Source of the DNA: Escherichia coli
GTDB lineage: Bacteria > Pseudomonadota > Gammaproteobacteria > Enterobacterales > Enterobacteriaceae
Length of the DNA stretch: 64,000 nucleotides
Direction: 5' to 3' (one strand)
Assembly: GCF_011045215.1 (NCBI RefSeq)
Contig: NZ_CP049201.1
Made by a program: the position numbers and the translations under genes. Below the pieces are notes generated by a model. It made no database searches, was not told the origin of the DNA, and saw nothing but the letters and a program-made list of their open reading frames with translations. Shown here one piece after another: positions 6,241-57,478 of the stretch. Numbering within the stretch: the first letter of the stretch is position 1; each line of letters starts with the position of its first letter.

Positions 6241-6426
<186 letters not shown>

Positions 6427-15210: not shown

Positions 15211-15309
15211 GCCTGATGCGCTACGCTTATCAGGCCTACGCGTCCCCTGCAATATTTTGAATTTGCACGATTTTGTAGGCCGGATAAGGCGCTCGTGCCG
15301 CATCCGGCA
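15211..15309. repeat. REP elements (two palindromic units) between aspC and ycbL
   Basis: gcctgatgcgctacgcttatcaggcctac and gtaggccggataaggcgctcgtgccgcatccggca. Confidence 0.8.
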
Positions 15310-30317: not shown

Positions 30318-31304
30318 CTAGTTGCCAGAAGCCAGCGAGGTTAGTTGCGCAAGCAGTTTCGCTGGTTCATCACCTGAAAGCTGTGCGTCTACAGGCAAAT
30401 ACCACCAATTTTCTTCTGCAAAGGCCCGGCATTTCACCGCATCTTTTTCAGTCATTACCAGCGTTTGCCCGGCGCTTACCAACGCACTGACATCCGCATG
30501 GTTCAAAGACTGATGATCGGCCAGCGGTACACATTTTTCCGGTTGTACGCCGCACATCTTCAGCGTGGCAAAAAAGCGCGGCGGATGCCCAATCCCTGCC
30601 ATCGCCACCACATGTTCAAGCTGAGCAACGTCACAACGCGTACCGGTACGTAAATTCACCGCCTGACCCGGCAGCAGATGCATGGGGATTTCACCGCTGC
30701 GGGGGACACCGCCGTTGACGATTACCGCATCAACTGACTTTAAGCGCCCCGCTCGCTCACGCATTGGCCCCGCCGGCAACCACCAGCCATTGCCAAAGCG
30801 ACGCACACCATCAATAACGACAATTTCCACATCACGCGCCAGACGGTAATGCTGTAAACCGTCGTCGGTTACGATGATCTGCACATCAGGGTGTTGCGCC
30901 AGAATGGCTTTTACCGCATCAGAACGAACGGGAGAAACCGCAACAGGCGCATCAGTGCGTTGATAAATCAACACAGGTTCATCACCCGCCTGTGCTGTGG
31001 TGGTATCTGCCGACAATAACAGCGGATAAGATTCAGCCTTACCACCATATCCCCGCGATACGACCCCCACGCGAATACCGCACTGTTGCAACTGTTCCAC
31101 CAGCCAGACAACGACCGGGGTTTTTCCGTTGCCGCCTGCGGTGAGATTACCAACCACGACAACCGGTACGGGGGCACGCCAGGCGCGCTTCAGTTTTAGT
31201 TTATAGCAAAGACGGATCGCGCCACTCACCAGGCCATACAACCAGGAGAGTGGCAGCAATAGCCGCCACAAAGGGGATTCACCAGACCAGATTTTTTCGA
31301 TCAT
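30318..31304 (-). CDS. lpxK: Tetraacyldisaccharide 4'-kinase, 328 aa
   Basis: ORF track 328 aa; P-loop [12 protein letters not shown]. Confidence 0.95.
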
Positions 31305-33049
31305 TGGCCAAACTGCATTTTGTGAAGTTGCGCGTAAACGCCGCGGTGCTCAAGCAAATCGTTATGCGTACCGCGTTCCACAATGACACCATCCTCAACG
31401 ACCACGATTTCGTCTGCCTTTTCAATGGTAGACAAGCGGTGGGCAATCACCAGAGAGGTACGGTTTTTCTGCAACTCATCCAGTGCCGCCTGAATCGCAC
31501 GTTCGGATTCGGTATCCAGAGCCGAGGTAGCTTCATCCAGAATCAGAATCGGGCTATCACGCAGCAAGGCTCGAGCGATAGCAATACGCTGACGCTGACC
31601 GCCAGAGAGCAGCACGCCGTTTTCACCAATCACTGTATCGAGACCGTTATCCATCTTATTGATGAAGTCCATGGCGTAGGCCATACGCGCCGCTTCTTCA
31701 ATTTGCTCACGGCTGTACTGTTCAGTCCGTGCGTACGCAATGTTGTTAGCAACCGTATCGTTAAACAGATGGACATTCTGCGACACCAGAGCAACCTGGT
31801 TACGTAACGACGCCAGGGTATACTCGCGCAGATCGTGACCATCCATCAGGATTTCGCCTTCATCAATATCGTAAAAACGCGTGATCAGGCTGGCGATGGT
31901 TGATTTACCTGAACCAGAGCGTCCAACCAGAGCAACCGTCTTCCCTGCCGGAATTTTCAGGTTGATGTTACGCAAGGCGGGTACGTCACGTCCCGGATAA
32001 GTAAAGGTGACATTGCGGAATTCCACGTCGCCAGTCGCACGCTCGAGCACGCGCTTACCTTCGTCTTTCTCCTGCTCACTGTCCAGAATGGTAAACAGCG
32101 TCTGACAAGCCGCCATACCGCGCTGGAACTGGGCGTTAACGTTGGTCAGCGATTTCAGCGGACGCATAAGTGCAATCATTGAAGAGAAAACAACGGTAAT
32201 CGTACCGGCAGTCAGGCTATCCATGACACTTGGGAAGCTCGCCGCATACAGAACAAACGCCAGCGCCAAAGAGGCGATCAACTGAATGATCGGATCAGAG
32301 ATGGAAGAGGCTGAAACCATTTTCATCCCCTGAAGACGCATTCGGTTACTGACTTTATCGAAGCGTTTCGTTTCCACTTCCTGACCACCGAAAATCAATA
32401 CTTCTTTGTGGCCCTTCAGCATTTGTTCTGCGCTGGTGGTCACCTGCCCCATGGTGTTCTGCATGTTTTTACTGATGTTGCGAAAACGCTTCGATACAAC
32501 GCGAATCGCAATCGAAACAATCGGTGCCAGCACAATCAAAATGATCGACAGTTGCCAACTGTAATAGAACATCATGATGAACAGGCCGATGATCGACGCA
32601 CCTTCACGCACAACAGTAATCAGTGCGCCGGAAGAAGAAGAAGCAACCTGTTCGGAATCGTAGGTAATACGTGACAACAGCGTACCCGTTGACTGTTTGT
32701 CAAAGAATGAAACTGGCATTCCCATCATGTGACCAAACAGGCGGCGACGCATGGTCATTACCACCTTTCCTGATACCCAGGAGATACAGTAGCTGGAGAC
32801 ATAGCTGGTGATACCACGTAAAATCATCAGTCCGATCACCACCAGCGGCATCCACACCAGCACGGAGCGATCTGTTTTACCAAAGCCATCATCAAGAAGT
32901 GGCTTAAGGAGCGATAACATGAAGGTATCGCTGGCTGCGTTGAGGATTAACGCTACGCCCGCCACGATCAGACCCGCTTTAAAAGGCGCAATGGTTGGCC
33001 ACAGTCGGCGGAACGTCTGCCACGTAGAGAGATCTTTGTCGTTATGCAT
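31301..33049 (-). CDS. msbA: Lipid A/LPS flippase ABC transporter MsbA, 582 aa
   Basis: ORF track 582 aa; Walker [10 protein letters not shown], signature LSGGQRQR; 4-bp overlap with lpxK. Confidence 0.96.
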
Positions 33050-33085
33050 TCAAAAAACCAGCATTTGTTGAAATAGCCGCATATT

Positions 33086-35350
33086 CTACCCGTTATCCAC
33101 TGGCACGCCAAACCACTGATGATACCAACGAGGTAAAATTTGCTCCCTGAGGCTGCTAATCCGCCAGCCTTGTGCTGAAAAATTGACCGTTAGTTGCCCC
33201 TGATGAGGAGTATCAAGCCACGTATAACCCTGTTGTTGATAGCGATGCTTAACTTTGTTAGAGGGCAGTCGCCATGCGTTATAGCGCGATGCCGATGCGA
33301 GTGCCACTTTTCCATTCACTCGCTGAATTAATGGCAACGATGATGAGGTATTACTGCCATGGTGAGGTACCTGAAGCAATGTTGCCTGCACTTGCTGCCA
33401 GTAACGGCTTAGCATCTTTTGTTCAGCGGGGACTTCAATATCACCGGTTAGAAGAATGCTATTCGTCCCGTCATCAACCTTAACCACACAGGAATGGTTA
33501 TTTCCTTTATCGTTGCTAGCTTGTAAAGGCCAGTGCACGCTGAAACGCAATCCTTGCCATTGCCACGCTTCGCCACGCACACAGGGCTGATGATGTTCCC
33601 AGTTTAACGGACTTCTGATCCATAACATCGGCCATGTGTGCAATATTGAGTCCAGCCCTCCCCGGTGATCCAGATGTTCATGACTCAGAATAACGCCTTC
33701 CGGTTCAAGATTATGCCAGTGGAGCCAGGGGATAATCAGTTGTTGCCCACTATCCCCTTCAGGCCAGGCCAGTCCCGTGTCATAGAGAATCGCTTTGCCG
33801 TTTCTGGCTATCACCATTGCCAGCCCTTGCCCGACATCAAGCATGTACACTTGCCACTCGTCAGGTCGAGGTTTTTGCCACAGCGGCCAGCACATCAGCA
33901 AGCCTACAGCCACACACATTGCTGGCAACGTTCGCCAGGCGTTTAATCGCCATACCACCAGTAAGAACCATGGGGAAAATGATAGCCATTGCCAACGTTC
34001 AGCAATGTTGATCCACCCTTCTGGCAAACTCTTTAACCCCCAGAAAAGTAAAGCCAAAGACCGGTCGGCAAGAAACCATAACCCTTGCTCCAGGATTAAC
34101 GGCCCGCTTGAATGCACAACCATCGCGGCGAGGATCAACGGAACCGTGATAAATGTCACCAAGGGAATTGCTAATAGATTTGCAATAAACGAGGTCAGAC
34201 TAATGCCATGAAATATGACGATTTGCACGGGCATAAGCAGAAGTGTGATTCCCAGTTGCAGATGGATGAGGGAAACAACTGCACGCAATACCGGCGGCAG
34301 TTGCCACTCAGGACAGGGAAACCACTGATACCAAAATATCAATGCCGCGACCGCAGCGGCAGAGAGCCATAAACTTTGCGAGAGAATGGCAACAGGATCC
34401 ATCAGCAAAATTGCCGCCAGACAACATATCCATACATCCCAGCCACTCCACTGTCGCCCACTTAACTTAAGCATTCCCCACGTAGCAAGCGCCACAACGG
34501 TACGCAATGCAGGAGGTTGCATTCCCGTCAGCCAGGCATAAAAAGCAGCACAGCAGATTCCGCCAATTAATGGCATTTGCCAGTGGATCCAGCGCCCAGG
34601 CAGAAAAATTTGTCCACTGCGAATGAGTCCGGCAGCCAGCAACGCCGCAAAAGCGATGTGCAATCCCGATATCGCCATTAAATGCGCCGTTCCAGTATCA
34701 CGCATGATATTTTTGATTTCTTTAGGGACGGATAACCGTTCCCCCATACCTAAACCAAGAATAACCGCATTCCACGGATAGGGTTGCAGCGTTGTTTGTA
34801 GTGACGCCAGATACTGTGCACGCAGGCTACAATTCGGTTCAATAACACTTGCCTGCAGAAAGCGGCCGGTGAGCGGCTGATGCTGGGCAATGGCATAACG
34901 CTGGCTATCAAAGCCGCCATCATTAAGTTGACCATGAACGGCACGAACTTTGAGTTTCATTGACCACAGTTGTCCGGCACAAACCGCTTGCGGAAGATAT
35001 TCGCCATACAGCACAAGGCCTGGCGCAGGGAATATACGTCGACCTTGTAGATGAGTAATTTGACCGTAATGAGTGGTCATGCCGTCAGTTGCAGTGATCT
35101 CAACAATTGCATCCTGCGTCGCGCCAGTTAAGGTTTCTCCTGCCCACAAAATTTGCTTTGCCGCTAATATACCCCAAATGAAAAACAGCAACGTCAGCGC
35201 GATATAACGTACGGTTTTAACAGGGATAAATGCCAGTACGCAGGCGAAGAGAGTCAGAAACGCAAGGGTTAATGTCCCAGGCAAATGGGGCAAAAGCAGC
35301 AACGGAAAAATTCCGCTAATTATGCATACGCCGACTGTCGTTATTTTCAT
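33086..35350 (-). CDS. ycaI: ComEC/Rec2-family inner-membrane protein with C-terminal metallo-beta-lactamase domain, ~754 aa
   Basis: ORF track frame 33086..35380; polytopic N-terminal region and motif SHEHLDHRGG near C-terminus. Confidence 0.9.
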   Translation of the reverse strand: MKITTVGVCIISGIFPLLLLPHLPGTLTLAFLTLFACVLAFIPVKTVRYIALTLLFFIWGILAAKQILWAGETLTGATQDAIVEITATDGMTTHYGQITHLQGRRIFPAPGLVLYGEYLPQAVCAGQLWSMKLKVRAVHGQLNDGGFDSQRYAIAQHQPLTGRFLQASVIEPNCSLRAQYLASLQTTLQPYPWNAVILGLGMGERLSVPKEIKNIMRDTGTAHLMAISGLHIAFAALLAAGLIRSGQIFLPGRWIHWQMPLIGGICCAAFYAWLTGMQPPALRTVVALATWGMLKLSGRQWSGWDVWICCLAAILLMDPVAILSQSLWLSAAAVAALIFWYQWFPCPEWQLPPVLRAVVSLIHLQLGITLLLMPVQIVIFHGISLTSFIANLLAIPLVTFITVPLILAAMVVHSSGPLILEQGLWFLADRSLALLFWGLKSLPEGWINIAERWQWLSFSPWFLLVVWRLNAWRTLPAMCVAVGLLMCWPLWQKPRPDEWQVYMLDVGQGLAMVIARNGKAILYDTGLAWPEGDSGQQLIIPWLHWHNLEPEGVILSHEHLDHRGGLDSILHTWPMLWIRSPLNWEHHQPCVRGEAWQWQGLRFSVHWPLQASNDKGNNHSCVVKVDDGTNSILLTGDIEVPAEQKMLSRYWQQVQATLLQVPHHGSNTSSSLPLIQRVNGKVALASASRYNAWRLPSNKVKHRYQQQGYTWLDTPHQGQLTVNFSAQGWRISSLREQILPRWYHQWFGVPVDNG

Positions 35351-35503
35351 GCACCCCTCCCTGTTTATGGAAGTGTGCAATTTTGTTGAGCGGTTGTCTG
35401 GTGGGAATTTTGCGTTCCCCGAGGCACGTTCAGAAGAATTTAACGAGAGGGTGAAAACTGCTCAAAACTCTGCGAGGCAGCTTCCAGTTCCAGATTAGAT
35501 AAA

Positions 35504-35531
35504 TGAAAAAAGCACCCGACAGGTGCTTTTC
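35504..35531 (-). terminator. Rho-independent terminator downstream of ihfB
   Basis: agcacccgacaggtgct hairpin flanked by A-run (plus) giving T-run on minus strand. Confidence 0.8.
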
Positions 35532-35555
35532 TCTCGTTCAAGTTTGAGTAAAAAC

Positions 35556-35840
35556 TTAACCGTAAATATTGGCGCGATCGCGCAGTTCTTTACCAGGTTT
35601 AAAGTGAGGAACGTATTTTCCTTCCAGTTCTACTTTATCGCCAGTCTTCGGATTACGTCCGGTACGTGGTGCGCGGTAGTGCAAAGAGAAACTGCCGAAA
35701 CCGCGGATTTCAATACGCTCGCCCTGCGCAAGAGTCGAGGCCATATGCTCCAGCATCTCTTTTACTGCATCTTCAACCGTCTTGGCGGGAATGTGCGATT
35801 GCTGGGTGGCAAGTCTTTCTATCAATTCTGACTTGGTCAT
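35556..35840 (-). CDS. ihfB: Integration host factor beta subunit, 94 aa
   Basis: ORF track 94 aa; sequence [94 protein letters not shown]. Confidence 0.98.
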
Positions 35841-57240: not shown

Positions 57241-57410
57241 AATGGCTCACTCAAGCTTGCTCACGATTGATTCCAGTAACAAACCGTATTGTGTAATTAT
57301 TTCTATAGCAGATCGCTATATAGGCTTGTATACATCGAATAATTTGAAAATCAAAGAGATAGGTAGATTTTCACTCGAAAGTAGTATTACGTGTAAGTGA
57401 GGAGTAATTA

Positions 57411-57424
57411 TTGTTCGGTATCAA
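57411..57424 (-). promoter_or_regulatory. FNR site TTGATACCGAACAA in dmsA promoter
   Basis: Minus-strand reading of ttgttcggtatcaa gives TTGAT-ACCG-AACAA; about 170 bp upstream of dmsA start codon. Confidence 0.65.
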
Positions 57425-57436
57425 AGGGAGACAAAA

Positions 57437-57458
57437 AAAGCGCCCGCAGGCGCTTTTT
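57437..57458 (-). terminator. Rho-independent (bidirectional-looking) terminator after serS
   Basis: aagcgcccgcaggcgctt hairpin flanked by A-run and T-run. Confidence 0.85.
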
Positions 57459-57478
57459 AGATTCAGAAAAATTAGGTA

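Follow-up and report, generated by a model that had tools for sequence, protein, structure and literature searches.

ComEC/Rec2 proteins are the DNA transporters of naturally competent species of Haemophilus, Aggregatibacter and Vibrio. Members of this family from naturally transformable bacteria whose structures have been solved include the full-length chains 9vc9, 9vcb and 9vcf, N. carbonis ComEC, determined by cryo-electron microscopy (cryo-EM), and the M. glycerini domains 9ic4. Escherichia coli, in which natural transformation is not seen under known conditions, encodes a member of the family as well, the inner membrane protein YcaI (b0913 in strain K-12). In the present work, we discuss ycaI as it occurs in a stretch of 64,000 nucleotides (nt) of E. 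coli contig NZ_CP049201.1, hereafter called the window. The gene lies on the minus strand at 33086-35350 and is the same as that of K-12, sharing its length of 754 amino acids (aa) and its neighbours in the arrangement ihfB-ycaI-msbA-lpxK-ycaQ. The gene itself is already known, and so are the family to which it is assigned, the operon around it and the embedded msbA promoter. From the analysis presented below, we consider it highly probable that ycaI is an intact inner-membrane ComEC/Rec2 gene, ComEC-like by homology, which is normally near-silent and probably induced by CRP together with Sxy.

ComEC/Rec2 identity and three-domain architecture

The family membership of the product is supported by two NCBIfam equivalog models, NF008580 (PRK11539), which matches residues 1-754 at 1312 bits for a cut-off of 969, and TIGR00361 (ComEC_Rec2), which matches residues 65-718 at 1106.5 bits for a cut-off of 190. 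A sequence search of the PDB recovered the solved full-length ComEC/Rec2 chains 9vc9 (5.1e-78, covering YcaI residues 95-747), 9vcb (1.2e-75) and 9vcf (1.5e-75), followed by 30bt (2.3e-22); the isolated ComEC nuclease domain 9ic4 was also matched. The ComEC reading is supported for each defining feature open to an in silico test, and the matches lie far beyond chance. The gene and the parts of its product are as follows.

33086..35350, minus strand: ycaI coding sequence, ComEC/Rec2 family, 754 aa and TAG stop (open reading frame list, translation, NF008580 and TIGR00361)
35354..35360, minus strand: Shine-Dalgarno-like GGAGGGG, 3 nt from the ATG (direct sequence reading)
35129..35350, minus strand: three N-terminal transmembrane helices, residues 1-74 (AlphaFold2 helices 3-18, 26-40 and 45-74, confidence above 94)
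34838..35119, minus strand: periplasmic OB fold (DUF4131 region), residues 78-171, including invariant N143 in LNDGGFD
33950..34750, minus strand: Competence domain PF03772, polytopic channel part, residues 201-467 (Pfam 5.5e-53, TIGR00360 4.9e-62)
33137..33856, minus strand: metallo-beta-lactamase-fold nuclease domain, residues 499-738 (Pfam match 505-686)
33656..33685, minus strand: metal-binding motif 2, SHEHLDHRGG, residues 556-565 (translation)

The sole long open reading frame of this segment on the minus strand extends from 33086 to 35380; its likely start is the ATG at 35350 and its stop the TAG at 33086-33088, giving exactly the span that the initial annotation had assigned to the gene. 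The GGAGG of the ribosome-binding site is kept across enterobacterial orthologues. The same annotation had described a large polytopic protein of the ComEC type ending in a metallo-beta-lactamase domain with the motif SHEHLDHRGG, and had named Competence, DUF4131 and Lactamase_B as the domains to look for. The motif is encoded where the list above places it, and the overall description is borne out by the family hidden Markov models, the matches to solved chains, a three-domain structural model and the structures found to resemble its nuclease and OB domains. Of the three Pfam domains, Competence is present with the score listed, so that a ComEC-type channel domain is found, and Lactamase_B (PF00753) matches residues 505-686, or 33293-33838, at 3.3e-23; DUF4131 stays below threshold, at 22.1 bits for a cut-off of 31.6.

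An alignment of 134 diverse full-length ComEC proteins was used both for structure prediction with AlphaFold2 and for the analysis of conservation. The resulting YcaI model is of high confidence, with a predicted local distance difference test score (pLDDT) of 95 and a predicted template modelling score (pTM) of 0.93, and divides into N-terminal helices (3-74), a beta domain (78-171), a helical membrane domain (176-491) and an alpha/beta domain (499-738). The cryo-EM structure of N. carbonis ComEC shows the same layout, with three transmembrane helices preceding the OB fold. In the model, the beta domain consists of five strands, the fourth and fifth of which are separated by a short helix. 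This is an OB fold of the nucleic-acid-binding type, and we accept it in YcaI despite the sub-threshold DUF4131 score because the structure prediction shows it. The Competence region is modelled as part of the helical membrane domain with pLDDT above 90 and contains, at residues 223-231, the motif HLMAISGLH (HLxAISGLH in the family); H223, S228, G229, H231, R283, N391 and P404 are invariant or nearly so in the 134 relatives.

The C-terminal domain finds its top structural matches in the ComEC nuclease domain, in phosphodiesterases and in the RNase J, RNase Z and CPSF nucleases. Metallo-beta-lactamase-fold nucleases and phosphodiesterases such as RNase J, RNase Z, CPSF73 and Pce/CbpE are soluble and, unlike YcaI, possess neither a membrane channel nor an N-terminal OB fold. 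The metal ligands of YcaI are intact, H557, D561 and H562 of motif 2 being invariant in the 134 relatives. Position 559 is a histidine in enterics and an aspartate in most other relatives: motif 2 reads HxDxDH in 110 of the 134, including Pasteurellaceae and Vibrionaceae, whereas Escherichia and most other Enterobacterales have HxHxDH. Within the Enterobacterales, HxDxDH is confined to a few genera, for example Budvicia, Rahnella, Hafnia and Edwardsiella. The PDB chains 9vc9 and 9vcb read SHGANAHAGG where natural orthologues read SHxDxDHxGG. A natural loss of the metal site was considered for them and rejected; since all 80 natural orthologues inspected keep H-x-[DH]-x-D-H, these chains are probably engineered D-to-A inactive variants.

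Gene order and the msbA promoter in the end of ycaI

All genes around ycaI are transcribed from the minus strand, in the order serC, aroA, ycaL, cmk, rpsA, ihfB, ycaI, msbA, lpxK, ycaQ, ycaR and kdsB. The features that matter here are the following.

33083..33111, minus strand: msbA promoter, with -35 TTGGCG at 33106-33111, a 17-nt spacer and -10 TAGAAT at 33083-33088 (sigma-70 scan)
33050..33085, minus strand: spacer between the ycaI stop and the msbA start, 36 bp, identical in seven E. coli lineages
31301..33049, minus strand: msbA, lipid A ABC exporter, downstream neighbour (annotation; ABC_membrane and ABC_tran)
30318..31304, minus strand: lpxK, tetraacyldisaccharide 4'-kinase (annotation; PF02606 4.9e-115), with a 4-nt overlap with msbA
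35556..35840, minus strand: ihfB, upstream neighbour (annotation; Bac_DNA_binding 4.1e-31)

The initial annotation had put ycaI immediately downstream of msbA, 36 bp beyond lpxK-msbA and in the same orientation. The common orientation and the gap of exactly 36 bp (33050-33085) are correct, and the polarity has to be reversed: read along the minus strand, ihfB is followed by ycaI, msbA and lpxK. ycaI therefore lies upstream (5') of msbA and merely has the higher plus-strand coordinates.

The first three bases of the msbA -10 element are the TAG stop codon of ycaI, and the -35 element lies within the last ycaI codons. This pair is the only promoter-like site that the sigma-70 scan found between 32900 and 36100. 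The seven E. coli lineages compared show no difference in the last 40 nt of ycaI or in the spacer. In six Enterobacterales orthologues, down to 42% protein identity, the -35 and -10 elements are invariant and the codons between them vary; the distance of 35-38 nt to msbA is kept in them as well. In E. coli, msbAp has been mapped by Cappable-seq and overlaps codons that were recoded; the recoding lowers its activity and is deleterious (PMC13287592). An earlier recoding study had found the ycaI TAG alone not to be replaceable in the usual way (PMC4434889), a behaviour that the overlap with the -10 element may explain.

The association of the two genes extends well beyond E. coli. We sampled 80 organism-labelled gammaproteobacterial genomes and counted the genes as linked when msbA starts at most 400 nt from the comEC stop. 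By this definition comEC and msbA are linked in 72 of the 80, usually followed by lpxK and kdsB, and the linked genomes include Haemophilus, Aggregatibacter, Vibrio, Photobacterium, Shewanella and Alteromonadales; ihfB and rpsA precede comEC in Enterobacterales only. The spacer measures 35-38 bp in most Enterobacterales, the exceptions being Budvicia (46), Arsenophonus (55) and Moellerella (33). In 51 of the 72 syntenic loci msbA is preceded by an exact TAGAAT, 24-46 nt away save for one Colwellia metagenome-assembled genome where the distance is 108 nt, and most of the remaining loci have TAAAAT or TACAAT at the equivalent position. A promoter located inside the end of comEC is a sufficient account of this very old linkage, for which a shared function is unnecessary.

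Several loci of the sample depart from this arrangement. In Xenorhabdus ehlersii (L048) the comEC match stops at residue 678 and msbA does not follow it, the comEC of Pasteurella bettyae (L060) contains an internal stop, and in Haemophilus sputorum (L071) comEC does not adjoin msbA. Outside the sample, comEC does not adjoin msbA either in locus L016 (3001-5295), which encodes an orthologue of 39% identity beside ribA, a PAP2 phosphatase and lapA/lapB, another gene set of envelope and lipopolysaccharide (LPS) assembly.

It is conceivable, at rather long odds, that the overlap of promoter and comEC, which runs from Escherichia to Vibrio and Shewanella, is more than an accident of gene packing: it might physically entrench comEC in genomes that have ceased to transform, or Sxy-induced read-through might raise msbA-lpxK expression. 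An envelope function of YcaI tied to its neighbours, for instance as a periplasmic phosphodiesterase or in a membrane role in lipid A/LPS export, whether instead of DNA import or beside it, appears very unlikely to us. The same synteny is present in genera that comprise naturally competent species (Haemophilus, Aggregatibacter, Vibrio), the embedded promoter accounts for the linkage without any common function, and the OB fold is of a type that binds nucleic acids. The phenotypes of a ycaI nonsense mutant are small and possibly polar on msbA; in the 2026 study concerned, artificial transformation was somewhat lower in the mutant, polar effects on msbA not being excluded there.

Intactness and selection

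The reading of ycaI as an intact ComEC/Rec2 gene can be assessed from its conservation. The 134 relatives share 25 invariant columns, and YcaI keeps every one of them; they include N143 in the OB fold, H231, R283 and N391 in the channel, and D505, D524, H557, D561, H562, C621, D637 and H663 in the nuclease. The 90% consensus of 132 relatives outside Escherichia comprises 65 columns, and YcaI deviates from it at 3 of these, for a family median of 2 and a range of 0-6. The length of 754 aa is constant across Enterobacteriaceae. The ratio of nonsynonymous to synonymous substitution rates (dN/dS) was estimated by the Nei-Gojobori method in seven E. coli lineages, namely this window, a K-12-type strain, EDL933, 536, 55989 and two others, in all of which the frame has 754 codons and is annotated as a normal coding sequence. 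The ratio is 0.17 for ycaI overall, with 0.24 in the N-terminal/OB part, 0.14 in the Competence domain and 0.155 in the metallo-beta-lactamase part; lpxK (0.12) and ycaQ (0.13) give values of the same order and msbA gives 0.016. YcaI is therefore under purifying selection, of a strength ordinary for a non-essential gene.

Of 5426 complete E. coli genomes, 5425 contain the segment. Positions 33000-35500 of the window match the chromosome of strain PapM-32-1 with 100% identity, and the gene is labelled there 'ycaI: ComEC family protein'. Over ycaI and msbA together (31301-35555), the identity to this strain, which was isolated from baboon stool in the Gambia, is 99.8%, that of ycaI alone being 100%. 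Just 33 of the 5425 genomes reach at least 99% identity over the ycaI segment, which makes the allele of the window a relatively uncommon one. It differs from the K-12-type allele at 21 of 754 residues, none of them at an invariant family position. In the same search of E. coli genomes with positions 33000-35500, 4 of 5435 matching places lay on plasmid-class records, and some genomes held two copies of the segment.

Two large clusters of short YcaI-like proteins (P0042 and P0044) were considered as lineage-wide pseudogenes and rejected, as they are heterogeneous fragments of 152-753 aa and mostly partial calls. A few genuine truncations are found in E. coli on megabase-scale contigs (P0282, 452 aa; P0288, 347 aa; P0290, 294 aa) and indicate sporadic loss of ycaI in single strains.

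Such truncated alleles are among the observations that would agree with ycaI being a decaying relic, held in the genome only by the msbA-lpxK promoter in its 3' end and encoding a functionless protein. So would the conservation of the msbA -35 and -10 elements, far beyond that of the rest of the gene, the deleterious effect of recoding that touches msbAp, the lack of an obvious phenotype in ycaI deletions and the fact that natural transformation is not seen in E. coli. The promoter, however, needs only about 30 bp of the 3' end, yet the full frame of 754 codons is intact in all seven lineages and its length is unchanged across Enterobacteriaceae; dN/dS amounts to 0.14-0.24 in each domain, and the invariant catalytic and channel residues are all kept. 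Because every family-invariant residue is retained and purifying selection operates, we do not regard ycaI as a relic and give that possibility very little credence. That the C-terminal domain is a beta-lactam-hydrolysing enzyme conferring antibiotic resistance, as the Pfam Lactamase_B match and the HxHxDH motif might suggest, is almost certainly wrong, since class B models score far below their cut-offs (bla_class_B_core 18.7 bits for 100, blaAHM 17 for 590), structural matches to beta-lactamases score much lower than those to the ComEC nuclease, phosphodiesterases and RNase J/RNase Z/CPSF, and in YcaI this domain forms one polypeptide with a DNA channel and an OB fold.

Candidate control by CRP and Sxy, and function in E. 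coli

Two features lie in the spacer between ihfB and ycaI.

35505..35533, minus strand: intrinsic terminator after ihfB, a 13-pair stem followed by a T run
35471..35486, minus strand: candidate CRP-S (Sxy-dependent CRP) site TGGAAGCTGCCTCGCA, starting 136 nt upstream of the ATG, with two mismatches to TGCGA-N6-TCGCA

A stem followed by a T run occurs at the position of the terminator in all six ihfB-comEC spacers that were aligned, the stem sequence differing in L013 and L015. This strong terminator insulates ycaI from rpsA-ihfB transcription, so ycaI needs a promoter of its own. The sigma-70 scan found none matching at 9 or more of 12 positions, and the best pair found by hand, TTGAGC-17-TAAATT, reaches 8 of 12 and was not adopted. 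The Rfam scan gave no match in ycaI or adjoining it; elsewhere in the window it returned, above the gathering score, the sRNA STnc130 (57331-57465, plus strand), naRNA4 (CssrE; 6285-6363, minus strand) and ES036 (CssrF; 15232-15274, minus strand).

The candidate CRP-S site would fit an induction by CRP and Sxy. Its TCGCA half-site is perfect, and the half-sites CTGGAA and TCGCA are shared, around a varying 6-nt spacer, by E. coli and two orthologous loci (L010, L012), one Salmonella-like and one of Citrobacter. Upstream of comEC in Yersinia aldovae and Arsenophonus, CRP-S-like sites with a single mismatch are present, and none of 300 shuffled sequences did as well. CRP-S sites have been predicted at enterobacterial competence promoters (PMC1635313), with which the candidate agrees, and expression of sxy is stated, in a secondary source, to induce all competence-gene homologues of E. 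coli (PMC3330819). Induction of sxy also results in a low, hofQ-dependent DNA uptake in E. coli, detected only with lambda Red.

By analogy with the characterized family members, YcaI is predicted to transport and cut DNA in a host that, in contrast to theirs, is not naturally transformable under known conditions. The Competence domain would form the channel, with the OB fold and the nuclease domain placed over its periplasmic mouth. Double-stranded DNA arriving from outside may be engaged there; the nuclease would degrade one strand, and the other would pass along the channel to the cytoplasm. In E. coli such a system would normally be almost silent and probably induced with the other competence homologues by CRP and Sxy, and would then allow DNA uptake at a very low level.

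Several observations weigh against this proposal. Direct DNA uptake was below the detection limit in sxy-induced E. coli, a search of the literature found no experiment showing DNA transport or cutting by YcaI itself, and ycaI deletions have no noted growth phenotype, although such results do not address classical uptake of single-stranded DNA. The candidate site is imperfect as well: its two mismatches are equalled or bettered in 16 of 300 shuffles, which makes it marginal when E. coli is taken by itself, the window shows no enrichment of the CRP-S pattern (40 matches for 46 expected), and several comEC promoters of Enterobacter and Klebsiella lack a CRP-S-like site. Spontaneous plasmid transformation does not need ycaI and follows a different, double-strand route. 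The literature consulted on YcaI is in line with the statement, already made in the initial annotation, that the role of the protein in this species is not well defined.

As a discovery the gene carries little weight, since the annotation of ycaI as a ComEC family member is practically universal among E. coli genomes and discussion of its homology to competence genes goes back to at least 2006. What is added here is that YcaI is intact at the family-invariant positions and evolves under purifying selection, and that its tight linkage to msbA reflects the msbA promoter in the end of ycaI. This arrangement has a practical side, in that an essential gene, msbA, can be disturbed when the 3' end of ycaI is deleted, recoded or interrupted by an insertion. 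If Sxy-induced read-through into msbA-lpxK were true, competence induction would be coupled to lipid A export. The residual interest of the locus lies in an old question, namely what makes E. coli, although not naturally transformable, retain a full set of DNA-uptake genes that selection maintains.

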